Origin: a phage
Length of the DNA: 49,949 nucleotides
Reading direction: 5' to 3' (one strand)
Sequence record: OZ470806.1
Under the pieces are notes generated by a model, which was given only the letters and a program-made list of their open reading frames with translations, was not told where the DNA came from and made no database searches. This document shows positions 29,371 through 47,879 of this stretch, piece after piece. Within the stretch, counting starts at the first letter, position 1, and the number at the start of each line of letters is the position of its first letter. The position numbers were made by a program, and so were the translations under genes.

Positions 29371-29414
29371 ATAGCATTTTTTGTTAAACGATGATTTAAT
29401 GATTGTGTATTATA
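29371..29414 (+). promoter_or_regulatory. promoter with conserved 20-bp element (helicase)
   Basis: ATAGCATTTTTTGTTAAAC + 19-nt spacer + ATTATA. Confidence 0.45.
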
Positions 29415-29446
29415 CACGCCAAATGGCATTACTCAAAGGTTTTAGA

Positions 29447-31486
29447 ATGATTCCAAACATTGAAAAGCAAATATCAGCACTTGGTGAAGCGGTAATTAAA
29501 TCTATTCAGGAGCGATTCACTGTTGGCGATATTGTACCTTACCCTTACCAGTGCGTTGCATACGCTGAGATCGCAAAGCGTATGAAAAATTATGAGCATC
29601 CATTCTTTGTTAAAGCGTCCGTATCGGCTGGCAAAACATTGATGTTTGCAATGGTTGCTCACCAGTGCCGGAAAATGGGCTTGAAAATGATGGTCCTTGC
29701 TCGCCAGGCTGAGATTGTGGATCAGGATTCCGAAGAGATAACAAATCTTGGCGTGCCGAACTCCATCTATTGTGCAGGACTGAAAACAAAAAGCGCATAC
29801 TTTCCGATCGTTGTTGGTTCTGAGGGCACTGTAGTTAATGGACTGTTTAAAGCGCTTGGCGACTATGTTCCGCACGTTATCGGGATTGATGAATGTCACC
29901 AGGTGGATTGGGAAGACCTTGCAGACGCAATAGAGAAAGATGAATCTTTTTTACAAATGACGACGAAGAAAGGAGAAAAAGTACCAAATCCAGATTATGA
30001 CGTAGCGAGCGATAACGAATGCGAAGAGTTCCTGATTGGTGATGATGGCTTGCCAATGGAGGGAACAGGCCGCACACAATACACTGTCATTATTATGGAA
30101 ATGATGCGCCGTTGCCGAAAAGCATATGGCCATGAACTGCGCATATTTGGTATGACTGGATCTGAGTTTCGCGGTGTAGTCCCAATACTGGTAGAAGATA
30201 AAAAGCAGAAAGGATTCTGGCGCGAACAGGTTACTAATATTGACACCAACTACCTTATCAAGTTTGGATCTGTTGTTCCGACTAATTTTGGCGACGTTGG
30301 CGATCTCGGGTATGACCTTTCAGAGTTTGAGGCATCAAGTGAGGATGGCGTTGCAGACTTTGACGCTAAAACGCTTCGCAGGATGGAACAAAAAATTCAT
30401 GAAGAAGCGACCATGACAAAGCGCATCATGGCGAAAGTTCACGAGATCTGTAAAAACCGTAACGGCGTACTTGTGACATGTGCAGGAGAAAGGCATTGCA
30501 AAGAGGCCGCGGCAGCATTGCCACCTGGAACTACTTACAGGATCATTACTGGCAAGACTGGCGACAACCAGCGCAAGGAGTGGTTGAAAGAAGCATACGA
30601 GGGGAAGGTTAAATACATCTTCCAGGTGCAGGCGCTAACTACTGGCGTTAACGTGCCGTTTTGGGATACGTCTGTTATTCTGCGTAAGATTGGATCTCTT
30701 ACGTTGCTGATTCAGCTTTTAGGGCGCGGAATGCGACTTCTTAAGAAATGGCACAAGGAACAAGGCTTCAAGAAAGATGATCACCTGGTTATGGATTTTT
30801 CAGGAACGATGGACGAGTTAGGTGAGCTTTATTTTGATCCGATACTGGAACAGGCGCAACATCAGAAGCGATTCAGGAACGGTAAAGATCCGAAGCCTTG
30901 TCCTGTTTGCGGAACTCTTAACAGCTATTATGCTCGTCGTTGTATGCACGTAGACGAAAACGGCAACAGATGCGAGTGGTTCTTTAAATTCAGGACATGT
31001 GATGATCAGATTGACCCGCGCACTAAAAAGATTATTCAGCGCGGCTGTGGAACTAAAAATGATATTGCGGCCAGGGTATGCAGACATTGCGACATGTCAT
31101 TGATTGACCCTAACGAGAAGTTAAGCGGAAAGCACTACACAAAAAACGACTGGTTCCAGGTGCAATCTTTCTCGGTTGACATGACGAAAAACCAGAAAGG
31201 GATAATATTTAATTATGAGCTTTCCGATGGCATAGACACTTTCAGGGCGAGAGAGATATTTTTCCCTGAATCTGATAGCCAAATTTGCCGCGCAAAATGG
31301 CGAAGCGTTGCTCTTAAGCACATACCGGATCGCCGTGTTGCTGGCATGGTGGCGAGCTATCGTAATGCACGAAAAATAATGCAATATGTGAATCACATCA
31401 TGCCACCATCGCGTGTGACTCACCGCAAGACTAGCAAGGGAGAAGATAATTTGTACAAGAAGGAATTTAATTATGGCAATGACTGA
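29447..31486 (+). CDS. SF2 DNA helicase
   Basis: Walker A SVSAGKT, DECH box; C-terminal Cys4 zinc-ribbon motifs; start taken at ATG 29447 downstream of predicted promoter (ORF track opens at 29381). Confidence 0.8.
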   Translation: MIPNIEKQISALGEAVIKSIQERFTVGDIVPYPYQCVAYAEIAKRMKNYEHPFFVKASVSAGKTLMFAMVAHQCRKMGLKMMVLARQAEIVDQDSEEITNLGVPNSIYCAGLKTKSAYFPIVVGSEGTVVNGLFKALGDYVPHVIGIDECHQVDWEDLADAIEKDESFLQMTTKKGEKVPNPDYDVASDNECEEFLIGDDGLPMEGTGRTQYTVIIMEMMRRCRKAYGHELRIFGMTGSEFRGVVPILVEDKKQKGFWREQVTNIDTNYLIKFGSVVPTNFGDVGDLGYDLSEFEASSEDGVADFDAKTLRRMEQKIHEEATMTKRIMAKVHEICKNRNGVLVTCAGERHCKEAAAALPPGTTYRIITGKTGDNQRKEWLKEAYEGKVKYIFQVQALTTGVNVPFWDTSVILRKIGSLTLLIQLLGRGMRLLKKWHKEQGFKKDDHLVMDFSGTMDELGELYFDPILEQAQHQKRFRNGKDPKPCPVCGTLNSYYARRCMHVDENGNRCEWFFKFRTCDDQIDPRTKKIIQRGCGTKNDIAARVCRHCDMSLIDPNEKLSGKHYTKNDWFQVQSFSVDMTKNQKGIIFNYELSDGIDTFRAREIFFPESDSQICRAKWRSVALKHIPDRRVAGMVASYRNARKIMQYVNHIMPPSRVTHRKTSKGEDNLYKKEFNYGND

Positions 31487-31892
31487 TAAAGGCGATTATC
31501 TGGAGTTTTACGAAAGAGATCCGACGGATACGCTAAAGGAGGAATCACACCAGATCGGGGCGTTTCAATGGTTAACTTATGCTCATCCTGAATTTCTTGC
31601 CTGGCATACTAAAAATGAGGGCGACAAGGGGATCGCCACTGCAATGATGGATCAGCAAGCCGGACTAGTTAAGGGCGTAAGTGATTTCATCATCCTGATT
31701 GGATTAAAAGGCCGCTATCCGTTTGCAGCAATTGAGATGAAGCGCGTCAATAAGTCAGGCAAGGGTAAGGCTTCACCAGTCAGCAAGGAGCAAAAAGCCT
31801 TCTTGCGCCGTGTGCGTGAGCTTGGCGGATTCGCTGCCGTAACATACGGATATAAGCAATTCATGATCGCGGTAGAATACATGATGAAATAG
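31473..31892 (+). CDS. VRR-NUC-type PD-(D/E)xK nuclease
   Basis: 139 aa; GVSDFIILI...AIEMKR motif. Confidence 0.6.
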   Translation: MAMTDKGDYLEFYERDPTDTLKEESHQIGAFQWLTYAHPEFLAWHTKNEGDKGIATAMMDQQAGLVKGVSDFIILIGLKGRYPFAAIEMKRVNKSGKGKASPVSKEQKAFLRRVRELGGFAAVTYGYKQFMIAVEYMMK

Positions 31893-31933
31893 CACTTTTT
31901 GTTAAAACAGGCGCGAAGGATTGCGCCATAATA
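31889..31933 (+). promoter_or_regulatory. promoter with conserved 20-bp element
   Basis: ATAGCACTTTTTGTTAAAAC (stop TAG of upstream gene embedded) + 19-nt GC dyad spacer + CATAAT. Confidence 0.45.
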
Positions 31934-31966
31934 ACACCAGTTCAACAAACAACAGGTAATTAAGAA

Positions 31967-32053
31967 ATGAGCAAAGAAACCGAAGTGACATTTGAACAAA
32001 TAGAACGCGAAACATTCATTGGCAATGCTCTTGCTACTGGTGGTCATTACTAG
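31967..32053 (+). CDS. possible small ORF (28 aa)
   Basis: ATG-initiated ORF between promoter and dam; weak RBS. Confidence 0.2.
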   Translation: MSKETEVTFEQIERETFIGNALATGGHY

Positions 32054-32080
32054 GCTGTTAAACCAAATCAATATTTCAAA

Positions 32081-32668
32081 GTGACTGGCAACCGCTATAA
32101 CGGAAGCAATACGCCGGACGTTGTGCGCGATTTGTGGTCTACGCCGTCTGAGCTTGTAGAATGGATGGAAAGCGAATACGGTGATTATGACATTGACGCG
32201 GCGGCAAGCAAAGAAAATGCTGTATGTGAAAAATTCTACAGCAAGGAAACAAATTGTTTAAAGCGTTGGTGGGGTAGTAATAAGCATATATGGCTGAATC
32301 CACCGTATAGCAATATTACGCCATTTGTTAAGAAGGCGATTGAGCAAATGGAGCACAACAACCAGATCGACATTCTGTTACCTTGCGACACATCAACAGG
32401 ATGGTTTTATGAAGCGCAGCAGCGCGCAGCGGAAATAATCTGGATCACTGGCGAAGTTTACCAGGAGGATGGAACAGAATATTCCCGCACCGGACGCCTT
32501 GCGTTTACTTCCGCGCTAACAGGTAAACCAGTGCAGGGAAACAACAAAGGCAGCGTTATTTTCATCATGCGCGAACTGAAAGAAGGTGAGCAGCAGAAAA
32601 CGCGATACGTTAAAATCAGCGACATTTGCCCTTCGGTGGCAGACCGTCGCGCACGGAAACGGAGCTAA
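32081..32668 (+). CDS. dam: DNA N6-adenine methyltransferase (Dam-like)
   Basis: DLWSTP and NPPY motifs; GTG start. Confidence 0.75.
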   Translation: MTGNRYNGSNTPDVVRDLWSTPSELVEWMESEYGDYDIDAAASKENAVCEKFYSKETNCLKRWWGSNKHIWLNPPYSNITPFVKKAIEQMEHNNQIDILLPCDTSTGWFYEAQQRAAEIIWITGEVYQEDGTEYSRTGRLAFTSALTGKPVQGNNKGSVIFIMRELKEGEQQKTRYVKISDICPSVADRRARKRS

Positions 32669-32672
32669 AACC

Positions 32673-32930
32673 ATGCAAAAAGAAAGAAGCGTTTATTTAA
32701 ATGAAACTGGAGAATGGTTGTTATTTCGCGCTATGGTATGCGATGCACTTGATAAAAACCCTAACGTGAAAAAGATGATTGATTGCGATCCGTGGGAATT
32801 TTCAAGCGCATTAGATATGAGCTTTGAGGAGACAAAAAAACTCCCGCTTGAAAAATGGAACGAGCAAATCAGAAATGACATGCAAGAATTTGTCGATTCG
32901 TGGAATTTTCAGCACGGAATGATCCACTAA
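32673..32930 (+). CDS. hypothetical protein
   Basis: ATG 32673 after RBS GGAG, coupled to dam stop. Confidence 0.45.
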   Translation: MQKERSVYLNETGEWLLFRAMVCDALDKNPNVKKMIDCDPWEFSSALDMSFEETKKLPLEKWNEQIRNDMQEFVDSWNFQHGMIH

Positions 32931-32973
32931 CAGCACTTTTTGTTAAAACGCCCGGCCTTGTGTCGGGCATAAT
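32930..32973 (+). promoter_or_regulatory. promoter with conserved 20-bp element
   Basis: ACAGCACTTTTTGTTAAAAC + dyad GCCCGG/CGGGC spacer + CATAAT. Confidence 0.45.
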
Positions 32974-33005
32974 TATTTCATCAAAACGAACAAGAGGAAA
33001 ACAAA

Positions 33006-33185
33006 ATGGTTGTTTACGATCCACGCGCTTTTAAAATTGCTCAAGAAGTTTCACGCGAATCTGTTGCTGGCGGTTCGGTTAACGGCTATCAGTTTGATTG
33101 GTCGGCAGCAATGACCCTGCTTAAGGTTGCATATGGTCACGCGCCAATTGAAACAGCGGAGGAATATTATAAGCATGAAGGTTGA
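33006..33185 (+). CDS. small hypothetical protein (59 aa)
   Basis: ATG with RBS GAGGAAAACAAA directly downstream of predicted promoter; below ORF-track size cutoff. Confidence 0.4.
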   Translation: MVVYDPRAFKIAQEVSRESVAGGSVNGYQFDWSAAMTLLKVAYGHAPIETAEEYYKHEG

Positions 33186-33417: not shown

Positions 33418-33512
33418 GGATTATTATCATGTGGCGTTTGTTACTTTTGCCCTTACCTGTTATGATGGCGATCTCTATTGTATACGTTGTCATAATGAGA
33501 TAAGGAGAATTT

Positions 33513-34631: not shown

Positions 34632-34674
34632 ACTTTTAATCATTAAAATATAAATATAAATCATAAATTTAATT

Positions 34675-34705: not shown

Positions 34706-34710
34706 TTCCT

Positions 34711-34739: not shown

Positions 34740-34777
34740 CAATTAATTGTTGACTTTTATCTACAGGAGATCTAATC

Positions 34778-36114: not shown

Positions 36115-36150
36115 GGTAACTTCCTTTTGTTGTTTCGTTTCGATGAAACA

Positions 36151-36194
36151 AATATACCCGATACGAGATCGGGAGTTTTAACAAAAAGTGCTAT
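36151..36194 (-). promoter_or_regulatory. promoter with conserved 20-bp element (minus strand)
   Basis: minus-strand ATAGCACTTTTTGTTAAAAC + dyad CCCGAT/ATCGGG spacer + TATATT. Confidence 0.45.
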
Positions 36195-36706: not shown

Positions 36707-38290
36707 TTACCCCAGCAATGTTGGATTTACGAAAACAACGCCATTAATCACACAAATATAATTTCTTTCTTCAAGCATCGGCAGCAGTTGCGTTTCCATA
36801 CGCTTCATTACGCCAGCCTGGCCAACAAAAGGCTTAACTTTTCGTGCAGCCTCATATATGGCGCGCACATTCAAGATTCCCTTATTAGCCTTGCCGTGTC
36901 GAGTGATGATCTCGATTAGTTTACCCATTTCAGCATCATCACCAGCATAGCCAGAGGCGTTGGCGGCGCTAATGTATGTTTTGCTCAACTCGCTAAACAT
37001 CAGCAGTGCTTCCTGAACGGTTTCAACTTCAATCTCTTTCGACTTCTGAGGGTATCCACCAGGATTAAACCAGTTGCGGATAGTGTGCAAAACTGAAGCA
37101 ATCCTGATCACCTGCTTATCCATTTTGCCAAGCGCGCCGCGCAGCATTGTATGCGAATACTTTCCTCCATCGGCAAGGTGCGGTTCCATCTCCTGACGAG
37201 CCATGTTAAGCACTCGCATTGCTGATTTGCTGATCTTAAGCTGGATGTTTGATTCACTCATGATGTTATGGATCAGCTTAAAATATTGGCTTTTCAGTTC
37301 TCCATCAACAGGTTCATAAGTAGAATCACCGTTATCATCAACAAACTTTCTACGGCCTAAAAATGATTCCTCACGCACAAGCAAATAACGCTCACTTACA
37401 CCGATACCGCGCGATCCTGCATCCATGATGGCATTGATTGTTTCATCCTGGGCAATTACCGCCATACAGCCAAGAGCTTTAAAACTCATATTGTTGTCAG
37501 CGTTTGCACGAGCTATAGAAACATGACCATGATCCCATGCTTTCAGCACAAGTTCGCTGTTGGTTTTACGTTCGCTATTGGCATATGTCAGACCTAAAAG
37601 GCTGTTAATACTAGTTGCCTCGTCTGAAATCACAGCAAAGTTACCCTGGCGATTGTTGATTCTTGCAAGTCCTTCCGGCGTGGTGTCGGACACAGGGAAA
37701 ACGATGTCACACATCTTTTCCAGTTTTTCTTCCAGATCTTCTTTCTCCTGGTACAGAGATTCCATATCAGCGCCGGAGCGCTCGCTTTTCATCTCTTTTG
37801 CAAGACCTGCCAACTTTGCCTGAATCTTTTTTCTTTCCTTCTTTCGCTGATCGTTAATTCTTTCCACTTCTGCAACCATTGGAGCAAGTGCCAGGCTGTT
37901 AACGGCAGATTTACCAGTTGAAGGAGGCTGGCTTGTGACAACATAAAGAGCTGTCGGCTGATCCGTTCCGTGATACTCAACCGTGAAGCGTCCAAGCATT
38001 GCAGCAGACACGCAGCCTATAAAATGCATATAGGCCGATGATTCAGGGAATTGAACAGAGCGAGCAATGTTGCGCGCCAACTTGCCAACAACATCAACAT
38101 CATTGCCAAGAGAAATTACAGGGTAGCGATCGTTTCCGTTATTAACATCATTAACCTCACCCCAAAAGCTAGACGATTGACGGTATCCGTTTGCCTGAAT
38201 GGACACGCGCACAGGAGACAATCCTTGTGCATCAGCTAATTCGATAATTTGTTTTGGTGTTAGTTTATTGGTTTCAAACGAAAAATTCAT
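36707..38290 (-). CDS. large P-loop protein of unknown function
   Basis: ATG 38290 (MNFSFET) after RBS AAAGGAG; Walker A-like PPSTGKS; charged coiled-coil segment. Confidence 0.5.
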   Translation of the reverse strand: MNFSFETNKLTPKQIIELADAQGLSPVRVSIQANGYRQSSSFWGEVNDVNNGNDRYPVISLGNDVDVVGKLARNIARSVQFPESSAYMHFIGCVSAAMLGRFTVEYHGTDQPTALYVVTSQPPSTGKSAVNSLALAPMVAEVERINDQRKKERKKIQAKLAGLAKEMKSERSGADMESLYQEKEDLEEKLEKMCDIVFPVSDTTPEGLARINNRQGNFAVISDEATSINSLLGLTYANSERKTNSELVLKAWDHGHVSIARANADNNMSFKALGCMAVIAQDETINAIMDAGSRGIGVSERYLLVREESFLGRRKFVDDNGDSTYEPVDGELKSQYFKLIHNIMSESNIQLKISKSAMRVLNMARQEMEPHLADGGKYSHTMLRGALGKMDKQVIRIASVLHTIRNWFNPGGYPQKSKEIEVETVQEALLMFSELSKTYISAANASGYAGDDAEMGKLIEIITRHGKANKGILNVRAIYEAARKVKPFVGQAGVMKRMETQLLPMLEERNYICVINGVVFVNPTLLG

Positions 38291-38317
38291 TGGTGATAAC
38301 TCCTTTTTGATGCGGCA

Positions 38318-38361
38318 ATAATACCGCACCAATGCTACCCGCATTTAACAAAAAATGCTAT
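38318..38361 (-). promoter_or_regulatory. promoter with conserved element variant (minus strand)
   Basis: minus-strand ATAGCATTTTTTGTTAAAT + spacer + TATTAT inside dyad GCGG/CCGC. Confidence 0.4.
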
Positions 38362-38962: not shown

Positions 38963-38993
38963 CTTTTATTTCTCCTTTCGTTTCGGTGAAATG

Positions 38994-39037
38994 ATTATGC
39001 CAGGCTTTTACACCTGGCTTTTAACAAAAAGTGCTAT
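38994..39037 (-). promoter_or_regulatory. promoter with conserved 20-bp element (minus strand)
   Basis: minus-strand ATAGCACTTTTTGTTAAAA + GCCAGGTGTAAAAGCCTGGC + CATAAT; near-identical to copy at 42471-42514. Confidence 0.45.
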
Positions 39038-39978: not shown

Positions 39979-40088
39979 TTAATAAACTCCTTAATAACAG
40001 CAATGATAATTACAAGCCCAGCAGTAAAAACAAGCAAACCGACAAGGCCAATCATAACACCAAATAAAATATCAAGCGTCTTAATCAT
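39975..40088 (-). CDS. small hydrophobic membrane peptide (37 aa)
   Basis: MIKTLDILFGVMIGLVGLLVFTAGLVIIIAVIKEFIK; stop overlaps next start (ATGA); RBS GGTGA; below ORF-track cutoff. Confidence 0.4.
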   Translation of the reverse strand: MIKTLDILFGVMIGLVGLLVFTAGLVIIIAVIKEFIK

Positions 40089-40099
40089 TTATTCACCAT

Positions 40100-40126
40100 T
40101 GATAAAATGGGAGGCGGAAACCTCCC
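40100..40126 (-). terminator. rho-independent terminator (minus strand)
   Basis: perfect hairpin GGGAGG-tttccg-CCTCCC followed by ATTTTAT on minus strand. Confidence 0.55.
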
Positions 40127-40135
40127 ATTGGTTAA

Positions 40136-40363
40136 TCATACAGCTTTCCAGCTTTCAATAAACATGCTGTTTTCTTCCAGAAGTTTAATCAATTCTTCGC
40201 GCGTGTATTTGCGGATTTTACTACCTGGATGTGATCCAACAACAAACACACCTTTACCACTCGTGATTGTCAACTGGTTGATTCCACAAGATTTATCCAT
40301 CTTAATGGCGACGCGGTGATGTGAATCAACAGTGTTCATGATGTTAGTAACTTTAGCTTTCAT
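40136..40363 (-). CDS. hypothetical protein
   Basis: ATG 40363 (MKAKV) after RBS GAGGA. Confidence 0.4.
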   Translation of the reverse strand: MKAKVTNIMNTVDSHHRVAIKMDKSCGINQLTITSGKGVFVVGSHPGSKIRKYTREELIKLLEENSMFIESWKAV

Positions 40364-40537
40364 TATGCAATCCTCATTATATTTGGTGTGATAACTATAC
40401 CAGGTTTGAGAAATATTGTTTAGCAATTCGTGCTATCAGTTGAAATAGCTATGGCGCTTTGCTCGCTTGCCGTCTCCGCCATAATGATCATTTGCAACCG
40501 CCACCATCCAGGCATTATGGAATATTATTAGCTTCAT

Positions 40538-40819
40538 CTAATTAATACCAACAACGTTAAAACTCACAGCTTTTGTTGCGCTAAATACATACGCTTCAAC
40601 AGCTTCACCAAATACGCGAATTTTTCCATAACCGTACTGCGCATTCATATTGCGCCAAACCGTCCTGTTAGAGCAGAACGCGTTACCAGTCTTGATAAGA
40701 TTATCCATCTCTTTTCTTAGATCATGATAATCAAGCCAAAATCTATAAGCGCGTTGTTTAATGAGTTTCGCCTTGATTGTTTCGGCTGAGTTTTTAAAAT
40801 CGCTGTTTTTGTAGGCCAT
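40538..40819 (-). CDS. hypothetical protein
   Basis: 93 aa; TAATG coupling with upstream gene. Confidence 0.4.
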   Translation of the reverse strand: MAYKNSDFKNSAETIKAKLIKQRAYRFWLDYHDLRKEMDNLIKTGNAFCSNRTVWRNMNAQYGYGKIRVFGEAVEAYVFSATKAVSFNVVGIN

Positions 40820-41013
40820 TACACAACATCCATAATAGTATTGAATCCACGCAGTTTGAAAGAGTTTCCATGTTTAACAACGTTCCATGTCAGGCCGGAG
40901 TGATACGCAACCATATCCTCAAGATCAATGGTGATGATAGCGCCTTTCTTAAAGATTCCTTTCTCGTGAGTGGTGTCACGCTGTACAACTTTAACATCAA
41001 CTTGATTTTCCAT
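40819..41013 (-). CDS. hypothetical protein
   Basis: ATG 41013 (MENQVDV) after RBS GAGGA; the longer ORF-track version reads through the promoter element. Confidence 0.4.
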   Translation of the reverse strand: MENQVDVKVVQRDTTHEKGIFKKGAIITIDLEDMVAYHSGLTWNVVKHGNSFKLRGFNTIMDVV

Positions 41014-41044
41014 TTTTAAATCCTCGTTCGTTGTCGATGCGCTT

Positions 41045-41088
41045 AATATACCAATCAGAGGCGCATCGGTTTTAACAAAAAGTGCTAT
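41045..41088 (-). promoter_or_regulatory. promoter with conserved 20-bp element (minus strand)
   Basis: minus-strand ATAGCACTTTTTGTTAAAAC + spacer + TATATT inside dyad CGATGCGC/GCGCATCG. Confidence 0.45.
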
Positions 41089-41364
41089 TTGCTGACTGGT
41101 CATTATTCCATCTATTCCATTAATCAGGAATAACATGAATAACTCATTCGCGATCACTTGGATTGTGAGACTTTGAGTTTGGTCAATTTTAATCAAGTGA
41201 TTAACTTTTTGTGTGGAGGGGATAGAGAAACGCGGCCCTCTTGCGTCCTTTCCGGCAATCCTGGCGCGCGCATCTGTTATTTCTGTTCCACATGTTATCT
41301 CAAATAAGCCTCCGCACTTTTAGATAACAGAATCGGCGTTCATCAACAAAAAGAACAAAATAAA

Positions 41365-41550
41365 ATTTATATATATACCAATAAAATCAATAAGTTAGTT
41401 ATATATGTATTTATATTTGTTATTTACTGTTGAGCTTGTTCTATGGGTATATGGTGGGGTGGTGTTGTTTGTGGTGATATGTATGTGTGATTGTATATTT
41501 TTTAATCAATGGTGATGTGTGGTGATTTTTGTATGTATATATATGGGTAT
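41365..41550. repeat. AT/TG-rich intergenic repeat region, copy 2
   Basis: AAATCAATAAGTTAG at 41384-41398; GGTGAT-type and GTATATATAT blocks as in 21040-21190. Confidence 0.5.
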
Positions 41551-41743
41551 GGAGCAATCCTCCGTCAACCAAGTCAACAAGGTCATTTTTAACATAAAAA
41601 CCAATGACTTAACTGAGGCATTTTGTTATCTTTAAACGCGCCACATGCCAAAAATTGTTATTAAAACACAAAAATACATTGACACGTATGAAAGGCAAGG
41701 CAATAATGCATCCAGTTTAAACGCAACAAAAGGAGTAGACGCC

Positions 41744-42214
41744 ATGAGCGAAGAAAATATTAGCGCCATGTCGCGTAGTGAGTTCTGCGATATGCTTCGC
41801 AGCCTGGGCGCGGCAATTGGTAGCGGCGAGCGTAACAATGTATTCATGCCAGCACTTTTCTTGTGCGCTAACGTGGAGAACGGCGACGCAATTACAGCAT
41901 CGTACATGCGCCAGGTTGTCAACCGTGTGCCAGAAGTAAAGCAAAAAGGCGTGATCAGCATTAAGCGAAAGGTGACTGATGAGGGTGATGGCTTTGTGTT
42001 TGCGCTCACTGAAGCCAAAAGCAAGCCTCGCGTGCTGACTGGAGACGATATAGCGAAACTTGAAATCAAGTGGCGAGCAAAGTTTATTGCTCAACTTCTG
42101 AAAACTCAGCCGAGAATAAGCGATCTGGAAGGCGAGCGCCTGGAGGGTGCAGCAATCGCACTTGAGCGAATGAATGAAATGCTTAACGAGATGATAAAGA
42201 TGGGGGATGAATAA
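41744..42214 (+). CDS. hypothetical early protein
   Basis: ATG 41744 (MSEEN) after RBS AAGGAG; first gene after divergent AT-rich region. Confidence 0.45.
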   Translation: MSEENISAMSRSEFCDMLRSLGAAIGSGERNNVFMPALFLCANVENGDAITASYMRQVVNRVPEVKQKGVISIKRKVTDEGDGFVFALTEAKSKPRVLTGDDIAKLEIKWRAKFIAQLLKTQPRISDLEGERLEGAAIALERMNEMLNEMIKMGDE

Positions 42215-42474
42215 TGAATAAGGCATTAATTGGAGTTTTGATTGCAATCGCTACCCTGACCGGATGCGAAAAGGCATCTGAATCAACAGTTGTCGTAGGA
42301 GTGGAGTCAGATTTCAAAGTCGGTCGCCTGTTTACTGTTGATGGATGTACTGCGTACCGATTCTATGACAACGGTCGAGCAATCTATTACACCAATTGTA
42401 ATGGCGCAACGGATAGCACATACCGCAGCGGCAAAAACGTAATGCACCAACAAGTCACAACAGATATGAAATAG
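42214..42474 (+). CDS. small lipoprotein (second exclusion-type candidate)
   Basis: 86 aa; signal peptide plus lipobox LTGC closely resembling that of 20640-20867; two Cys in mature part. Confidence 0.5.
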   Translation: MNKALIGVLIAIATLTGCEKASESTVVVGVESDFKVGRLFTVDGCTAYRFYDNGRAIYYTNCNGATDSTYRSGKNVMHQQVTTDMK

Positions 42475-42514
42475 CACTTTTTGTTAAAACGCCAGGTGCA
42501 AAACCTGGCATAAT
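42471..42514 (+). promoter_or_regulatory. promoter with conserved 20-bp element
   Basis: ATAGCACTTTTTGTTAAAAC + GCCAGGTGCAAAACCTGGC + CATAAT. Confidence 0.45.
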
Positions 42515-42546
42515 AGCCTCATCGAAACGAGATTGAGGAAAACAAA

Positions 42547-42732
42547 ATGGCACGTCGCATCACCAAAGACCTTAAAGTCCTGAACAAAGAAAACGTAGTT
42601 AAAATCCTGGTTATCTGGGGCTACAACGAAGAAACAGCAAAGCAGAAGGTAGAGGCAGGTTATGACCTGGCTGTAAAAGCAATGCCAAACGACGACGCCA
42701 AAGGCATTGCAAACTATGTGGCTTTCTTTTAA
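42547..42732 (+). CDS. hypothetical protein
   Basis: 61 aa; RBS GAGGAAAACAAA. Confidence 0.4.
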   Translation: MARRITKDLKVLNKENVVKILVIWGYNEETAKQKVEAGYDLAVKAMPNDDAKGIANYVAFF

Positions 42733-42747
42733 TTAGCGGGTGAATAA

Positions 42748-42933
42748 ATGAAAACGAAATTAGTCCATAAATCAGAAATCAAGATCGGCGATACTGTGAT
42801 TCACAACGGCGAGCTTAGAACGGTTGGCAAAGAGTCAATAAGCCACGATGAATTTATGGGGATCTTGTTGTTCGGTGACTCTTATCGGTTGGGCTATAAA
42901 ATGGTTGAGCTTGTGGAAGAGGTCAAATTCTAA
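42748..42933 (+). CDS. hypothetical protein
   Basis: 61 aa; RBS GGGTGAATAA. Confidence 0.4.
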   Translation: MKTKLVHKSEIKIGDTVIHNGELRTVGKESISHDEFMGILLFGDSYRLGYKMVELVEEVKF

Positions 42934-42977
42934 ATAGCACTTTTTGTTAAAACTCAAAAACGATAACCAGGCATAAT
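42934..42977 (+). promoter_or_regulatory. promoter with conserved 20-bp element
   Basis: ATAGCACTTTTTGTTAAAAC + 19-nt spacer + CATAAT. Confidence 0.45.
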
Positions 42978-43031
42978 ACATCACATAGGGCGGCACGGCG
43001 TGCCCAGTTAAACCAATCAGGAGAAAGCACC

Positions 43032-43937
43032 ATGTTAAAATTAGCTGACATCAAATTCCCGATCACCTTCCAATCTCGCGGCGTTGGTCACTTCATGTTT
43101 TCCGACAAAAATACATGCACTAAGTTTAACGAATACGGAAAGCCTGATGTTTCAACAATGGAGATTGAGCACTTCATTGATGCGCATAACAAGTACTACA
43201 ACTCGCTTAAAGACTATGGATACGCAATGCCAGGCTACACTTGCTTGCACTATAAGCCATACAGGGGCCAGGTGTTACCAGTGCGCTCAACTGAGCGATC
43301 AGAGATTCATACGGTCGAGATGAAAACCTGCGACTACAAAAAGCTGTGGTGCTTAAGTGTGGACAATATCAAGTATCCGATCACGTTCTACACGGTTGGT
43401 AATTCAACGATTCGCTTCACATCGCGCGACAATGGCGTTTATAGCGATGGTCAGAAATCGGAGTTGAAAGTTGATTTCTTTGTCAATGGTCACAACAAAT
43501 TCAATCCGCACAACGAAAAGGATAAAGTGTATTACGTGGAAGATATTACGAAACACTTGTTTGGAGATGCGCCAATTGGCGGAGGTAAATCATATTTTGC
43601 GCAGGCGATAGATAACGCCGCTCGACGTATTGGTGAGCAGATTCACAGTCAAACAATTAAGGCGTCCGGAGGATGGCGTATTGATAAGAGCGCCTTTGCC
43701 CATCAAGAAATCGTAACTCATGGCGCAATTGAAGACATGCCGCTTGCCGCCACGCTAAAAGGCGTCCAAATTGCGGATGGCACATGGTTTGAATTAACGG
43801 CAAAGCCAAAGACGATCGAGATTCATGATGACGTTGTTATTCTTCTGCTTCATTATGGCAGTGCGAAAAACCGGACTGTTGCAGGAGAGATCAGCATCAA
43901 GCGCGGAACGATGGTTAAGTGGAAGGTTAAAGTGTAA
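43032..43937 (+). CDS. hypothetical protein with internal tandem duplication
   Basis: 301 aa; DIKFPITFQSRGVGHFMFSDKN and DNIKYPITFYTVGNSTIRFTSRDNG repeat units. Confidence 0.45.
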   Translation: MLKLADIKFPITFQSRGVGHFMFSDKNTCTKFNEYGKPDVSTMEIEHFIDAHNKYYNSLKDYGYAMPGYTCLHYKPYRGQVLPVRSTERSEIHTVEMKTCDYKKLWCLSVDNIKYPITFYTVGNSTIRFTSRDNGVYSDGQKSELKVDFFVNGHNKFNPHNEKDKVYYVEDITKHLFGDAPIGGGKSYFAQAIDNAARRIGEQIHSQTIKASGGWRIDKSAFAHQEIVTHGAIEDMPLAATLKGVQIADGTWFELTAKPKTIEIHDDVVILLLHYGSAKNRTVAGEISIKRGTMVKWKVKV

Positions 43938-43980
43938 ATAGCACGAATTGTTAAAACTCAAATGTGGGGCCAGGTATAAT
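43938..43980 (+). promoter_or_regulatory. promoter with conserved element variant
   Basis: ATAGCACGAATTGTTAAAAC + spacer with GGCC dyad + TATAAT. Confidence 0.45.
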
Positions 43981-44010
43981 GGCCTCACTTTCAACGAAGG
44001 AGATAAAACG

Positions 44011-44241
44011 ATGTACATTAGCAAGAAGATGAAATGCGTTTCCGTTAATTATGGTTGTGCTGGAATGTTCAAGCCTGGCGAAATCTATACGGCGCAAAAA
44101 CTGAAATCATCAACCGGATCTTTTTACGTGAGCAATAGTAAGGGGCATCGCATGTTCCTGAACGGTGGCAAAGGCACTAAGGTTATGGCGCACGCTATGG
44201 TGATTGCTGAATTTGAGGAGGTGAAGGATGGAGACAAATAA
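44011..44241 (+). CDS. hypothetical protein
   Basis: ATG 44011 after RBS GAAGGAGATAAAACG. Confidence 0.4.
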   Translation: MYISKKMKCVSVNYGCAGMFKPGEIYTAQKLKSSTGSFYVSNSKGHRMFLNGGKGTKVMAHAMVIAEFEEVKDGDK

Positions 44242-44449
44242 GCGCGTTAAACACAAGTTTATTGATAATCATGGCGATGCACTTGAGGTATACAAGTTCG
44301 GCGACCGTGTGTTTATTGATGGCACGTTTGAAGGTGGGCGCAGGCCGGATTTTAGGTCGATACTCACCATTGACCAGGTGCGCAAGCTGGCGGATAAGTT
44401 AAATGATCTGGCAGATGAAATCGAATACAAGCAAATTCATTTTAATTGA
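44228..44449 (+). CDS. hypothetical protein
   Basis: 73 aa; RBS GAGGAGGTGAAGG. Confidence 0.4.
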   Translation: METNKRVKHKFIDNHGDALEVYKFGDRVFIDGTFEGGRRPDFRSILTIDQVRKLADKLNDLADEIEYKQIHFN

Positions 44450-44460
44450 TAGGTTTGATA

Positions 44461-45000
44461 ATGAAAAAATACGAATTTGAACTTTGGGGAAGCAAATACC
44501 ATTTTTCCACGAGCAAGCCGATTGTTATCGTTGACCTGGACGGAACGTTATCAGACGGAACGCATCGCTTGCACCTGCTTCCGACAGAAGATTTGCACCT
44601 TACAGAAAGCTGGTCTGAGTTCAATAAGGCGGCTGTTGGCGATTCGCCGATTAAGAGCACGGTTTCAGTAGTTAACGGATTGTGGATGTCAGGATTTGCC
44701 ATCGTTATCCTGACCGGACGCAGCGATGAGGTGATGGCTGACACCTGCGGCTGGTTAAATTATAACGGCATCAAGTACGACGCGTTAATCATGCGCCGCA
44801 AGGAAGATAACCGAAAAGACACGATCATCAAAGAGGAAGTCTTGCGAGCTATCGGGCTGGAAAACATTGTGTGCGCTTTTGATGATTCGCCGAACGTGGT
44901 TAAGCACTTCCGCAGCCTGGGAATCACAACCTATCAGGTCACGGAATACGACAAGCCACATAATCACATCCAATCGCACGGCGTGGATGAATTAAAATAG
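44461..45000 (+). CDS. HAD-superfamily phosphatase (putative nucleotidase)
   Basis: IVIVDLDGTLSDG motif (DxDGT); ATG 44461. Confidence 0.55.
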   Translation: MKKYEFELWGSKYHFSTSKPIVIVDLDGTLSDGTHRLHLLPTEDLHLTESWSEFNKAAVGDSPIKSTVSVVNGLWMSGFAIVILTGRSDEVMADTCGWLNYNGIKYDALIMRRKEDNRKDTIIKEEVLRAIGLENIVCAFDDSPNVVKHFRSLGITTYQVTEYDKPHNHIQSHGVDELK

Positions 45001-45040
45001 CACTTTTTGCAAAAACAGATTGTCGGGCTTGCGGTATAGT
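44997..45040 (+). promoter_or_regulatory. promoter with conserved element variant
   Basis: ATAGCACTTTTTGCAAAAAC + 19-nt spacer + TATAGT. Confidence 0.45.
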
Positions 45041-45071
45041 AAGACCATCGACAACAAACGAGGATTAAACA

Positions 45072-45335
45072 ATGGCTAACAAGATCGAGTTTTTTAAAGC
45101 GGTAGACGTTATTGATGGCGCTCCTAGCTTCTTTGCCATCCATTCTATTGACGGCAATGATATTGGGTACAATGTTATCCGTCGAGATGGAATCTCAAAA
45201 CTTAGTGACCTTGTGAGCTTTATTGTGGCAAATGGTAAATGTGCATGGCACGATTCGCCACGAGAGCCGCGCCGCCGCGACATGCAAAATCCAGTTCTGC
45301 TTTACACGCTGGTAATTGAAGGAGTCAACAAATGA
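45072..45335 (+). CDS. hypothetical protein
   Basis: 87 aa; RBS GAGGATTAAACA. Confidence 0.4.
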   Translation: MANKIEFFKAVDVIDGAPSFFAIHSIDGNDIGYNVIRRDGISKLSDLVSFIVANGKCAWHDSPREPRRRDMQNPVLLYTLVIEGVNK

Positions 45336-45517
45336 TTTGGTTACTTGTATTTTTAGTGGTTTTCTTTTATATTTCAGGCTTATTCATCTTCCGAGCGCTG
45401 GTGAAAACATGCGATTGCACGGATAAAGATCAGCCTCTTGTTCTGATGTTCTGGTTTGTGTGGTTTTGGGTGGCGCTTTATCAGATTGTGAGCGAAAAAA
45501 GCCGATTTAAGTGGTGA
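45332..45517 (+). CDS. small membrane protein
   Basis: 61 aa; two hydrophobic segments; ATGA coupling. Confidence 0.4.
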   Translation: MIWLLVFLVVFFYISGLFIFRALVKTCDCTDKDQPLVLMFWFVWFWVALYQIVSEKSRFKW

Positions 45518-45572
45518 TTCTTGCTATAGCGCATTCATGCAGTGCGCTATGTTGAGATAACAACAGGAGATC

Positions 45573-45710
45573 ATGAAGATGCGAAACTTCGAAAAAATCG
45601 TAACCAAGAAGAAGCGCTACAGCTATGATGAGCACCGCGAGATGAATCAACGCTATCGCAAGAAGCTACAGCGCCCAGGCAAACATTCAAGCAGACATGG
45701 AGACAACTAA
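45573..45710 (+). CDS. small basic protein (45 aa)
   Basis: ATG with strong RBS AGGAGATC; Lys/Arg-rich; stop abuts next ATG; below ORF-track cutoff. Confidence 0.4.
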   Translation: MKMRNFEKIVTKKKRYSYDEHREMNQRYRKKLQRPGKHSSRHGDN

Positions 45711-45902
45711 ATGCAATTGCCACAATTTGACGAAAAAAGCGAAGAGATTGACAAAACTGCAAGTCACCTTCGAGAGCTTGCCGACATGATAGAGCGCGGT
45801 CAGGTTATGATTGTCAATATGACGATTAAAAGCGAGAATAGAAATTTCAAGGTTTTAAGCGAGACAACAGAAATTACTGTATTGAAAGCAAGAGGTGAAT
45901 AA
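45711..45902 (+). CDS. hypothetical protein
   Basis: 63 aa; coupled to neighbours. Confidence 0.4.
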   Translation: MQLPQFDEKSEEIDKTASHLRELADMIERGQVMIVNMTIKSENRNFKVLSETTEITVLKARGE

Positions 45903-45904
45903 AT

Positions 45905-46495
45905 ATGAAGCGCGACATTATCATCCTTAACGGACCGCCAGGAGTTGGCAAGGATACGCTTGCGGCATACTTAACGGGCCATCGTTACGCAGCCGTAAAG
46001 GCATTATTCAAACAGCCGATGTTCGATATTGCATTTTCCATGCTTGGCGTTTACCGATATGACGAGTTCATTGATCTGTATAACGACCGCGAGCAGAAAG
46101 AAAAGCCTCAAGCAATCTTGCAAGGCAAGTCGCCTCGCCAGTTCATGATCTGGATTAGCGAAGAAGTTATGAAGCCAGCTTTTGGCGAGCAATATTTCGG
46201 AAATCGCATGGTTGAGCAAGTACACGAAATGTACAGAGATTTGGCTGTTGTAATTAGTGATGGCGGATTCCCTGAAGAAATCAAGCCGCTAGTTAAGGCA
46301 GGCCATGAAGTTCACATTTGCCGACTGCATCGCGAAGGCTTCACGTTTGATGGCGATTCACGAAACTATATTGACCTGAGCGGATACCATCACCGCGTAA
46401 AACATTACGACTTCACAATGATTGATGGCGACCCAGAAAAGACTGTTGACGAGATCATCAAAACGGTCCAGTGGAAACACATTAAGATCAAATAG
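45905..46495 (+). CDS. deoxynucleoside monophosphate kinase-like P-loop kinase
   Basis: N-terminal IIILNGPPGVGKDT P-loop, resembling T4 gp1-type dNMP kinase N-terminus. Confidence 0.6.
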   Translation: MKRDIIILNGPPGVGKDTLAAYLTGHRYAAVKALFKQPMFDIAFSMLGVYRYDEFIDLYNDREQKEKPQAILQGKSPRQFMIWISEEVMKPAFGEQYFGNRMVEQVHEMYRDLAVVISDGGFPEEIKPLVKAGHEVHICRLHREGFTFDGDSRNYIDLSGYHHRVKHYDFTMIDGDPEKTVDEIIKTVQWKHIKIK

Positions 46496-46535
46496 CACGA
46501 ATTGCTAAAAGCGGGGCGCAATGCCTCGCTATAAT
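46492..46535 (+). promoter_or_regulatory. promoter with conserved element variant
   Basis: ATAGCACGAATTGCTAAAAG + 19-nt spacer + TATAAT. Confidence 0.45.
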
Positions 46536-46565
46536 GCAAACACCAATCAACGAGAGGAAATCATC

Positions 46566-46970
46566 ATGGTAGAGTTAAACGACATTCGCGTTGGAACAAA
46601 ATTTCGCGTAACCTGGGTATATGATGAGCGATGCGGCATTCGTAAAGGCGAGATTGTAACGGCTTCCGATCGCTATATCGGATCGTTAAAAGAGTTTAAC
46701 CGACCACGCATCAAGAATGGCTATATCATTACTCGACGACTTGGCTTTGATCATTATTGCGTAGTGGCAACTCAAGGAGTTTTGATTGAGCTTAAGCGAA
46801 TCAGCGATCATCGCGGCTGCCATGTTAAGACAATGAAAATGCAATTTCAGCGAGCGAGATACGATGCGCGACGGATGCGCCGACTTGCGCGCAATGCGAT
46901 CAAGTTCAAAAAGCCTGGTGGTGATTTTTACGGCATGTACAAGGGGATTTCGCGAAATGCTGGGAAATAA
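46566..46970 (+). CDS. hypothetical protein
   Basis: ATG 46566 after RBS GAGAGGAAA. Confidence 0.4.
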   Translation: MVELNDIRVGTKFRVTWVYDERCGIRKGEIVTASDRYIGSLKEFNRPRIKNGYIITRRLGFDHYCVVATQGVLIELKRISDHRGCHVKTMKMQFQRARYDARRMRRLARNAIKFKKPGGDFYGMYKGISRNAGK

Positions 46971-47069
46971 CAACAATGCAACCAACCCAAAGCCACCGTT
47001 TGATTTTCATGAAATCATGATTGTGTTATTCTTGATTCTCTTAGTTATTTATTCAGTGAGGGCCGCACT

Positions 47070-47333
47070 ATGGTTTTTAACGCACTAAAACGAATCTTTA
47101 AACATGAATACCGGATCGTTGCTTGCACAGAATGCAAGATTTATTACCTGCAACGCCGCCGCGTTATTAGTGGCGATTGGGAATATCTTACGGATGATGA
47201 TTTCGGCTTTTGGGCTATGGAGTTCAATAGCTACAGTGAGGCGCGTGAATACGCTAAAAAGTTGCACAAGTTCCGACCTTACAAACTGCGTTTGCTGGTT
47301 GTCAAAAAGTGCGACGTATGGGATCACGAATGA
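47070..47333 (+). CDS. hypothetical protein
   Basis: 87 aa; CTEC motif. Confidence 0.4.
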   Translation: MVFNALKRIFKHEYRIVACTECKIYYLQRRRVISGDWEYLTDDDFGFWAMEFNSYSEAREYAKKLHKFRPYKLRLLVVKKCDVWDHE

Positions 47334-47506
47334 AAAGAGTAATTATCACCTTTATTGCACTTATCGCTGGTTCCCACTTGGCTTATGGGTATAGCGGCAT
47401 TGTTGAGTCAATCGGTGGATTGATTATCTTCATGGCTGGCGCATGTTACGGATACGGCGATGGATTTAAAAACGGCAAGCGTTACATCCTGACTGGGAAG
47501 AAATAA
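47330..47506 (+). CDS. small membrane protein
   Basis: ATG 47330 overlapping upstream stop; Gly-rich hydrophobic segments. Confidence 0.4.
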   Translation: MKRVIITFIALIAGSHLAYGYSGIVESIGGLIIFMAGACYGYGDGFKNGKRYILTGKK

Positions 47507-47548
47507 TGTTAACCGCGCCGCTTCGGTGGCGCTAAAAGGAGGAAACAA

Positions 47549-47836
47549 ATGGCTAAAAGCAATCGTAAAATGTTGATTAACGCATTCGAAAAGGCAGCGC
47601 TTGAGCGTGGTTGGAATGACTCATTTCACACGGCAAACTGTATCCGCCGTTACGGATTCAAGAATTGCCGCTCATGGGCGCGTCAAATGGCTTCATGGTA
47701 TGATCTTGATGCGCATTACCTTGATATGGATTGCGCCCTGGTTGAAATGATTGAGCAGGCCGCACTAGAGGATCGACCATTAACGCAATCTGATTTTGAC
47801 GATTTTGTGCGCGATGAAATCTATTACATGAGCTAA
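47549..47836 (+). CDS. hypothetical protein
   Basis: 95 aa; RBS AAAGGAGGAAACAA. Confidence 0.45.
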   Translation: MAKSNRKMLINAFEKAALERGWNDSFHTANCIRRYGFKNCRSWARQMASWYDLDAHYLDMDCALVEMIEQAALEDRPLTQSDFDDFVRDEIYYMS

Positions 47837-47879
47837 TAGCACTTTTTGTTAAAACTTCCGCGAGGGCATTTGTTAAAGT
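47836..47879 (+). promoter_or_regulatory. promoter with conserved 20-bp element (weak -10)
   Basis: ATAGCACTTTTTGTTAAAAC + 19-nt spacer + TAAAGT. Confidence 0.35.

Follow-up and report, generated by a model that had tools for sequence, protein, structure and literature searches.

A repeated intergenic element of T1-like phages matches the enterobacterial marbox and may tie phage promoters to host MarA-family activators

Introduction

The phage sequence OZ470806.1 raises the question of what reads a 20-bp element that recurs between its genes, almost always at a set distance from a -10 hexamer. The stretch analysed here (49,949 nt, hereafter the window) is, by similarity to its relatives, a Hanrivervirus-like member of the Drexlerviridae. 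Rightward structural genes occupy its left 20 kb, and the rest holds replication, recombination, lysis and many small genes on both strands. When 8 kb of the window (40000-48000) was used as query, 229 phage records matched, the nearest relatives being 92-96% identical, e.g. Shigella phage SFP17, Escherichia phage JakobBernoulli (Drexlerviridae, Tempevirinae, Hanrivervirus) and pSf-1. Searches of the window for known RNA families and tRNAs were negative.

An original prediction, made from the letters of the window alone, took the element to be undescribed. This was wrong: the repeat was known from phage TLS as a "21-nt direct repeat", and T1, Rtp and Rogue1 have it as well (PMC11447400). The TLS repeats DR1-DR18 have the consensus aaATAGCACnnnTTGnTAAAA, are intergenic, run along transcription about 76 nt before start codons and are sorted into three groups, T, G and A; their authors found only three sigma70-like promoters in that genome and left open what the repeat does (PMC11447400). 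The element of the window is the same in consensus, variant groups, orientation and start-codon distance: 18 window copies have at most two mismatches in the 16 specified positions, and the same pattern recovers the TLS copies. What we add to the published account (PMC11447400) is a fixed -10, a match to a host activator site, the marbox, and an RNA hairpin signature.

The activator site in question accounts for the conserved bases of the element and for its position. The marbox is asymmetric and is bound by AraC-family activators of enterobacteria, namely MarA, SoxS and Rob, and RamA in Klebsiella and Salmonella. Judging from sequence, we hold it roughly 60% probable that these promoters are physiologically read and stimulated by MarA-family proteins of the host. 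The wider proposition, that the Drexlerviridae (more than 500 genomes) run their early and replication programme through some 14-21 near-optimal class II marboxes per genome, we would on the same footing call an even bet.

Results

The window contains 19 clear copies of ATAGCACnnnTTGnTAAAA and one weak copy (2088+; copies are named by coordinate and strand), with none expected by chance. A search with ATAGCACTTTTTGTTAAAAC at up to three mismatches gave 15 matches, against 0.00 expected from 100 dinucleotide-preserving shuffles. A matrix built from those 15 copies added 46492+, 40417- and 28881-, and an independent host-derived matrix, described below, added 22431+. Pattern and position-matrix scans found the element at all 14 coordinates first listed for it, and missing from that list were 6343-, 10103-, 22431+, 28881-, 40417- and the weak 2088+. 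Among these additional copies only 40417- falls inside the range originally given (29371-47879); 20922-, which lies out of that range, had nevertheless been listed.

To place these copies in their family, the window, five reference genomes (T1, TLS, Rtp, KP36 and Rogue1) and IMG/VR contigs were scanned for the pattern, and near-identical cassettes were collapsed to 191 non-redundant copies. The fixed spacing first reported as 19 nt past TTAAAA was borne out: aligned window copies show the 20-mer, 17-18 nt and (C/T)ATAAT. Across the family set the best -10 starts exactly 19 nt after TAAAA (18 bp past the 20-mer) in 142/191 copies (74%), and it lies within 1 nt of that offset (17-19 bp past the 20-mer) in 166/191 (87%). 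Each copy would form the upstream half of a promoter-and-leader cassette of about 75 bp, in the order 20-mer, 17-18 variable bases, (C/T)ATAAT-type hexamer, six bases, a conserved CA, an A-rich leader ATCGAAACGAA, Shine-Dalgarno and start codon. In most window copies the start codon lies 71-81 nt from the first base of the element, and at 42934+ it lies at 98 nt.

Transcription direction was taken from the -10, the start codon and the gene strand, and thus refers to predicted transcripts. On this basis 17 of the 20 window copies have their GCAC end upstream and their TAAA end toward the -10, the Shine-Dalgarno and the start codon (forward orientation), and this orientation is general across the six genomes. 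The proposed fusion to upstream stop codons also holds, with a stop in or against the element in 14/20 copies: at the 5' end in 13 (TAG in ATAGCAC, or TAA at -2 to -4) and within the TAAAA block in one (28881-). The idea that each small gene has an element of its own does not survive, as the actual density is about one per one to four genes.

With the -10 hexamer set at -12 to -7, the 20-mer occupies -50 to -31. The 142 copies in register, which were used for base frequencies and for folding, show the following conservation:

-47: G, 100%
-46: C, 100%
-45: A, 100%
-44: C, 96%
-40: T, 99%
-39: T, 96%
-38: G, 100%
-37: C 61% or T 35%
-36: T, 96%
-35 to -33: AAA, 99% each
-17: T, 63%; -15: T, 38%
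-14: G, 83%
-11: A, 99% (base used in site selection)
-7: T, 100% (base used in site selection)
-1: C, 74%; +1: A, 86%

The fixed -10 distance, the conserved C(-1)A(+1) start and the gene-ward orientation agree with the earlier proposal of a dedicated promoter class, promoter activity being read here from sequence. Conservation also extends into the predicted transcript start, from +1 to about +12 (A-T-C-G-A-A-A-C-G-A-A; e.g. window 42521-42532). This suggests a shared leader function beyond the promoter, e.g. translation enhancement or RNA processing.

These promoters have no -35 hexamer: positions -35 to -30 read AAA(A/C)CN, with about 2/6 matches to TTGACA. Nor do other bases of the element give the canonical sigma70 arrangement, as TTG(T/C)TA lies 22 bp and TTAAAA 19 bp from the -10. 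A scan of 28-48 kb with the sigma70 consensus gave 31 promoter-like sites, against 40.9 in shuffled sequence; it misses almost all copies and picks up only two, via weak hexamers, and it also detects two canonical promoters, at 29436-29409 (-) and 41679-41707 (+).

Host sigma70 polymerase could in principle use such promoters alone, by way of a good -10 and a partial extended -10, with the A/T-rich element serving the alpha C-terminal domains as an UP element and its marbox likeness being incidental or of minor modulatory effect. The -10 hexamers are indeed strong, G(-14), T(-17) and T(-15) have the frequencies given above, and T1-like phages thrive in unstressed cells. Moreover, the main text of a knockout screen with the T1-like phage LL5 reports no dependence on rob, marA or soxS. 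However, UP elements are degenerate A/T tracts that cover -59 to -38 and lack invariant G or C positions, whereas G-47, C-46 and G-38 are invariant here and C-44 nearly so. There is no -35 hexamer at 16-18 bp; TTGTTA or TTGCTA, taken as a -35 with a 22-bp spacer, would lie on the wrong helix face, and its bases belong to the marbox. The coincidence of the conserved bases with that site would also go unexplained. An UP element was proposed by the TLS authors (PMC11447400), and the new class II MarA targets lpxC, lpxL and rfaY do keep activator-independent activity (PMC12052159). On balance we consider it improbable that sigma70 polymerase acts alone.

The marbox is non-palindromic, 5'-gcannwwntgnnaaa-3', and in class II promoters it stands in forward orientation, overlaps the -35 and is centred between -36 and -55 (PMC12052159), with some 18-19 bp separating the 20-bp box from the -10 (PMC12052159, PMC10268841). 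The phage cores GCACTTTTTGTTAAA and GCACGAATTGCTAAA match it at 10/10 specified positions and span -47 to -33; the 20-bp box, at -50 to -31, overlaps the -35 and has its centre near -40, a class II position. RamA sits at about -41 on the class II promoter micF and recognises the pattern CACT-7X-AAA (PMC8811837), which the phage element fits as CACT-TTTTGTT-AAA. Read from the genome, the Escherichia coli K-12 micF promoter consists of ACAGCACTGAATGTCAAAAC, 18 nt, TAGAAT, 7 nt and the annotated first base of micF. It thus has the same 20 + 18 layout, with 15/20 box positions equal to the commonest phage variant. The box of the mar promoter, GATTTAGCAAAACGTGGCAT, was found in backward orientation. 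In the fumC upstream region a marbox is followed by a -10-like run at 16-18 bp, which adds little without a mapped start, and in the inaA upstream region no marbox site could be identified with confidence. A 20-bp form of the marbox, AYnGCACnnWnnRYYAAAYn, was reportedly given by Martin et al. in 1999, and against it only position 19 of the phage element departs (A rather than Y, in 77% of copies).

An independent comparison used a matrix made from 70 Salmonella MarA/SoxS/Rob/RamA sites mapped by chromatin immunoprecipitation sequencing (ChIP-seq; PMC10268841), with the consensus GCACAAATTGCTAAA and no phage sequence in it. Scanned over the window, this host matrix places phage copies at 18 of its top 20 matches. 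The copies score 14.9-18.1 bits, where 18.1 is the possible maximum and the host-site median is 11.0, and the phage variants score above 55-69 of the 70 host sites. Matches of at least 12 bits number 30 in the window, against 5.6 in shuffles. When the host matrix was slid along the phage profile in both orientations, the best register was -47 forward (mean column r = 0.85), the runner-up reaching 0.53 and the median being 0.06. Salmonella class II promoters likewise have no recognisable -35 (1.9 matches on average) and keep canonical -10 and start sites, and in structures of Rob or SoxS on micF sigma70 is displaced from the -35 position (PMC10268841). The phage promoters, which have a -10 and no -35, fit this description.

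The factor beyond plain sigma70 -35 recognition that the original prediction invoked is therefore in keeping with promoters that have no -35. Its view of TTGTTA as a displaced -35 is not, since these bases are part of the marbox, and the reader would thus most likely be host MarA, SoxS or Rob and not a phage protein.

The host matrix also gave two good matches outside the repeat family, which may be due to chance: 9647-9661 (+; 15.1 bits) in the major tail gene, and 31476-31490 (+; 14.2 bits) at the start of the gene 31473-31892.

Other sigma factors and regulators were compared with the element by their consensus sequences and rejected on sequence or spacing. For sigma54 the GG/GC spacing is 2 nt short and AG stands in place of GG. 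Sigma32, sigma28 and sigmaE share a partial hexamer likeness at the wrong distance to the conserved downstream block. The halves of the element form no direct repeat of the OmpR/PhoB tandem type, ArcA finds a single half-site only, and Fis, IHF, CRP and Lrp gave no convincing fit.

The element is a family trait. Scanning related T1-like genomes, a check proposed at the outset, gave 14-21 copies per genome in the six genomes including the window (allowing up to 2 mismatches over the 16 specified bases):

Window (Tempevirinae): 18 copies
T1 (Tunavirinae): 21 copies
TLS (Tempevirinae): 19 copies
Rtp (Braunvirinae): 19 copies
KP36 (Webervirus): 14 copies
Rogue1 (Rogunavirinae): 15 copies

It is essentially invariant across the four sampled subfamilies and the genus Webervirus. 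An 86-nt cassette query matched 566 phage records, whose hosts are mostly Klebsiella, Escherichia, Shigella, Salmonella, Citrobacter and Enterobacter; among the matches listed, genome sizes are about 45-52 kb, the exceptions being a fragment of 4.3 kb and a partially matching genome of 164 kb. Campylobacter jejuni is named as host in about 20 near-identical Drexlerviridae records and Pseudomonas aeruginosa in one, phage Motto; such names are unexpected for phages of enterobacteria and may be mis-assigned.

No homologue of MarA was detected among the open reading frames (ORFs) of the six phage genomes (phmmer --max, nothing below E = 1). Within the window, no AraC-type Pfam family was found among the 57 proteins, and no MotA/AsiA-like family among the Pfam families listed for them.

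The copies in the window are as follows (bits refer to the host matrix):

2088-2107, plus strand: weak copy ATAGCACGAATCGACAAACC, marbox-like and joined to the large terminase gene's TAG stop; 13.2 bits; no -10 at the right distance; a doubtful member
6312-6362, minus strand (6343-): copy antisense to late genes, between the gene 5891-6325 and the major capsid gene; poor -10, TATGCG
10072-10122, minus strand (10103-): copy antisense to late genes, just past the terminator of the major tail gene and facing its back; -10 TAGCAT; site shared with T1 (18832-)
20891-20941, minus strand (20922-): marbox-type promoter upstream of the lipoprotein gene 20640-20867; 17.5 bits; -10 TATAGT
22431-22481, plus strand: marbox-type promoter, ACAGCACAAATAGCTAAACA, 17 nt, CATAAT, upstream of the gene 22512-22790; GCGGTG/CACCGC hairpin brackets the -10; adjoins the TAA stop of 21369-22430
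28850-28900, minus strand (28881-): marbox-type promoter of the primase gene; 18.1 bits, the matrix maximum; -10 TATCAT in the loop of a terminator hairpin, T6 after
29371-29421, plus strand: marbox-type promoter of a helicase gene; -10 at 29408-29413, overlapping the opposite-strand -10 of the regulator gene's canonical promoter
31889-31939, plus strand: marbox-type promoter; upstream TAG stop within the element; spacer hairpin GGCGC/GCGCC
32930-32980, plus strand: marbox-type promoter; spacer hairpin GCCCG/CGGGC and T-rich tail, terminator-like by the scan used
36144-36194, minus strand: marbox-type promoter; spacer hairpin CCCGAT/ATCGGG and TATATTTGTT, terminator-like
38311-38361, minus strand (38342-): marbox-type promoter of the helicase gene 36707-38344; hairpin brackets the -10
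38987-39037, minus strand (39018-): marbox-type promoter; spacer hairpin GCCAGG/CCTGGC, nearly the same as at 42471
40386-40436, minus strand (40417-): marbox-type promoter, G variant GAATTGCTAAAC; 17.3 bits
41038-41088, minus strand (41069-): marbox-type promoter; 8-bp hairpin CGATGCGC/GCGCATCG brackets the -10; homology breakpoint against JakobBernoulli
42471-42521, plus strand: marbox-type promoter; upstream TAG stop within the element; spacer hairpin
42934-42984, plus strand: marbox-type promoter; adjoins the upstream TAA stop
43938-43988, plus strand: marbox-type promoter, G variant; 17-nt spacer; GGCC/GGCC brackets the -10; homology breakpoint
44997-45047, plus strand: marbox-type promoter; core GCACTTTTTGCAAAA, identical to a Salmonella RamA/SoxS ChIP-seq site; homology breakpoint
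46492-46542, plus strand: marbox-type promoter, G variant; -10 TATAAT
47836-47886, plus strand: marbox-type promoter; TGtTAAAGT; hairpin brackets the -10

The site of 6343- is also occupied, in the same orientation, in T1 (15068-) and TLS (15024-). Transcription from copy 10103- would run, after about 40 nt, into the terminator from behind and may give a short antisense RNA; alternatively, the copy may be simply a binding site.

Two copies flank a candidate phage regulator, which has one of the few canonical promoters of the window:

28884-29357, minus strand: Cro/YdaS-like helix-turn-helix regulator gene (phrog_2856), conserved, with an element copy on each side
29409-29436, minus strand: canonical sigma70 promoter of the regulator gene; TTGAGT, 16 nt, TATAAT; counterpart of TLS P57
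41679-41707, plus strand: canonical sigma70 promoter at the start of the rightward early cluster; TTGACA, 17 nt, AATAAT; resembles TLS P01

At 29358-29440 the regulator promoter stands face-to-face with the marbox promoter of the helicase gene, their -10 hexamers overlapping at 29408-29415, and the marbox of the helicase cassette sits in the leader of the regulator's mRNA. This arrangement, which is conserved in T1, TLS, Rtp, KP36 and Rogue1, looks like a switch; the regulator proteins themselves are 55-71% identical across the family. On the other side, at 28850-28900 (-), the regulator transcript ends in a genuine terminator hairpin, GCCTGGCATGATG...CATCTGTCAGGC and then T6, whose loop contains the primase -10 TATCAT. 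Because the primase promoter would initiate within the 3' arm of this terminator, its own transcript would escape termination. The design is common to T1, TLS and KP36.

Such an arrangement invites the alternative that the element is read by a phage DNA-binding protein, foremost this regulator, which would be made first from its canonical sigma70 promoter and then either activate in the class II manner from near -42, or repress, or serve as a roadblock of the stoperator type. Element copies flank its gene on both sides in all six genomes, its promoter (29436-29409) is one of few of canonical form, and the element in its mRNA leader would permit autoregulation. Moreover, the element contains an imperfect inverted repeat, TAGCA-N5-TG(C/T)TA, centred at -42, a conserved copy without a good -10 (6343-) suggests a binding site independent of initiation, and stoperator or enhancer-binding roles were proposed by the TLS authors (PMC11447400). 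However, the presumed recognition helix differs by subfamily (SQQTVNQW, SNQTVQGW, NLKTVWGW, TPQAVEEW), whereas the element is invariant. The inverted repeat leaves A-50, C-44, T-40, A-34 and A-33 unexplained, all of which the asymmetric marbox accounts for, and position -37, which the palindrome requires, is C in only 61% of copies. Finally, a perfect match to a host-factor consensus in sequence, orientation and spacing would have to be a coincidence, which we roughly estimate at <1%. We therefore regard a phage protein as an unlikely reader.

Further along, a region of about 450 bp (41197-41644) without any ORF of at least 50 aa divides the leftward and rightward early clusters, next to the near-consensus sigma70 promoter. 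It is possibly the packaging start or the site of the genome ends.

The bases between the element and the transcript start carry a signal of their own. The spacer dyads noted in the window are real: over the 142 copies the mean minimum free energy of -31 to +9 is -11.3 kcal/mol, against -5.5 when the free spacer and discriminator bases are permuted within each copy (Wilcoxon p = 6e-22), and 48.6% of the copies, against 4.6% in shuffles, have a perfect stem with a score of 15 or more. The near-identical dyad reported on opposite strands, at 39018- and 42471+, is likewise present. The hairpins are, however, not always confined to the spacer, as first thought, and two layouts exist. In one the hairpin lies in the spacer and ends at -12 or -13 (31889+, 32930+, 39018-, 42471+, 46492+). 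In the other it brackets the -10, with the 5' arm at about -25 to -18 and the 3' arm at -6 to +1 (22431+, 38342-, 41069-, 43938+, 47836+ and most T1 copies).

The arms vary in sequence between copies, with pairing retained. Among helices of at least six Watson-Crick pairs, single mismatches are G:T in 30 cases and A:C in 4 (p = 6e-6). As G:U pairing is possible only in the sense RNA, the hairpins are selected in readthrough transcripts and not in DNA or antisense RNA. By these counts the GC-rich dyads are not promoter features, and a DNA cruciform or single-stranded presentation of the -10 is rejected. Antisense-strand terminators are excluded by the same counts, and an antisense terminator scan passes only one window hairpin. 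On the sense strand two window hairpins pass (32950-32968+ and 36173-36157-), and 28850-28881- has a true T6 tail; several hairpins are annotated as terminators in the T1 and KP36 records. Some hairpins look like weak terminators. In the -10-bracketing type CATCGAAACGA comes after the hairpin and a U tract is lacking; this type may shield processed upstream transcripts at their 3' ends.

The cassettes also coincide with places where related genomes part. Between the window and its relatives, 11/99 homology breakpoints lie at the 5' edge of an element against 2.8 expected (p = 1e-4), nine of them in the -10 to -1 bin. A block of 1.3 kb found only in JakobBernoulli has a cassette copy at each end, the 39018- and 42471+ cassettes share a spacer, and in Rtp and Rogue1 the HNH endonuclease and other genes inserted into late operons come with copies of their own. 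This pattern suggests cassette-mediated gene exchange, and the repeat may be kept mainly as a portable recombination module, by which stop codon, promoter and gene would be exchanged in register between co-infecting phages, thanks to the identity of the 20 bp and the rest of the cassette. However, alignments end at the edge of any conserved island amid diverged genes, so the enrichment is no proof of crossovers there, and recombination alone leaves the strict -10 spacing and the gene-relative orientation unexplained. As the main reason for the repeat we find it rather doubtful, though less so than either of the two alternatives above; it is compatible with any promoter model and is best seen as a second property.

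Against JakobBernoulli, indels start at the element 5' edge at window 41028-41089, 43929-43938 and 44987-44997. The copies that accompany inserted genes are Rtp 6316+ and 21393+ and Rogue1 12048+ and 19332+; these small genes lie within late structural operons and, with a marbox-type promoter of their own, behave like morons travelling with the cassette.

Discussion

We infer the following mechanism, including activator binding, activation, the paralogue concerned and the role of the hairpins, from the sequence match, the geometry and the folding signature. Rob is constitutive, and MarA and SoxS are stress-induced. A host activator monomer would occupy -50 to -31, with one helix-turn-helix on GCAC and the other on TAAA, and would touch sigma70 region 4 and the alpha C-terminal domain, replacing the missing -35 contact. 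Host RNA polymerase would then initiate at the conserved A, seven bases past the -10. Contacts of this kind with sigma70 region 4 and the alpha C-terminal domain have a precedent in the RamA-micF complex (PMC8811837). As to the paralogue, the affinity of Rob is far above that of MarA or SoxS, and under standard conditions Rob is held in aggregates that are dispersed by dipyridyl (PMC10268841). With no phage-encoded activator, host factors would control about 19 non-structural transcription units.

A second code would overlap the first. The promoter would use the fixed positions, and only the free spacer and discriminator bases would form a hairpin in the sense RNA that reads through from the upstream gene, probably serving as a partial terminator or as 3'-end protection of the upstream transcript. 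The upstream stop codon would be built into the 5' edge of the box.

Reading by host activators would explain why the element is invariant across subfamilies whose proteins have diverged, why the hosts are nearly all enterobacteria possessing these regulators and why promoter-finding tools fail on these genomes. Several points weigh against it. The case rests wholly on sequence and computation. MarA and SoxS are scarce in unstressed laboratory cultures. T1-like phages nevertheless grow very well without stress, despite Rob being largely aggregated (PMC10268841). A Keio screen of the T1-like (TLS-like) phage LL5 recovered lipopolysaccharide genes, tolC, secB and ppiB, and its main text leaves rob, marA and soxS unmentioned, so that no single activator is indicated as essential. 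The class II effects reported for RamA or MarA are modest, at some two- to four-fold (PMC8811837). The antisense copies 6343- and 10103- and the -10-less 2088+ fit a simple promoter role badly, the -10 of 6343- also being poor. A few cassette-matching records give Pseudomonas or Campylobacter as host, which would count against host activators as readers if the names are correct. Activator redundancy, near-optimal sites and basal activity could reconcile these points, which is an assumption.

The closest known systems are the class II promoters of the mar/sox/rob regulon (micF, fumC, lpxC P2, lpxL P1, rfaY P1), which are alike in having an asymmetric 20-bp GCAC/TAAA box in forward orientation, centred at about -40/-41, no -35 and a sigma70-type -10. 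The phage promoters, known here from sequence, differ in that they belong to a virulent phage genome, number about 14-21 near-optimal copies per 50 kb, are fused to stop codons and are overlaid with RNA hairpins.

In T4 middle promoters a box, (a/t)3TGCTTtA, centred at -30, is read by the phage protein MotA after AsiA has remodelled sigma. These are alike in that the -35 gives way to a conserved box, set at a constant distance from a sigma70 -10, and in that the activator acts through sigma region 4. The element studied here is, however, centred at -40, has another sequence and matches a host activator; it is not a MotA box.

The PeSL (promoter-early stem-loop) cassettes of T4-type phages, reportedly described by Arbiol et al. 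in 2010, are said to be plain sigma70 early promoters with a stem-loop upstream. They too are repeated cassettes of promoter and stem-loop between small early genes and are tied to modular shuffling, whereas in the present cassettes spacer and -10 are interwoven with the stem-loop, and a marbox forms the upstream box.

The stoperators of the temperate mycobacteriophage L5 are 13-bp sites for the phage repressor, at which elongation is blocked. Many short, asymmetric intergenic sites oriented along transcription are common to both, an analogy drawn by the TLS authors (PMC11447400); the present sites differ in belonging to a virulent phage, in their fixed distance upstream of a -10 and in matching a host activator.

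Conclusions

The repeat and class II marbox promoters were each already known. What is new is the identification of the T1-like repeat as a marbox, which addresses a published open question and accounts for the near-absence of tool-predicted promoters in these genomes. No statement equating T1-like repeats with marboxes was found in the literature searched, which lacks most subscription journals and in which the exact sequence led to unrelated papers only, nor did that literature yield studies of binding, transcription or 5' ends in Drexlerviridae, including T1 and Webervirus.

If host activators do read the element, the mar/sox regulators would drive the development of a large phage group that includes laboratory contaminants and therapy candidates against Klebsiella and E. 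coli. Phage expression would then be coupled to host stress state, bile and antibiotic exposure, and replicating phage DNA could titrate the host activators. Clinical isolates that overexpress MarA, RamA or SoxS, as well as bile salts and salicylate, should alter early phage expression, which bears on the combination of phages with antibiotics. Moreover, a 75-bp cassette would hold three overlapping codes, namely the upstream stop, the next promoter and a hairpin in the sense RNA by which the upstream transcript is ended or protected, together with a junction for gene exchange. It would offer an example of compact design, with promoter, terminator-like RNA hairpin and stop codon in one short cassette.

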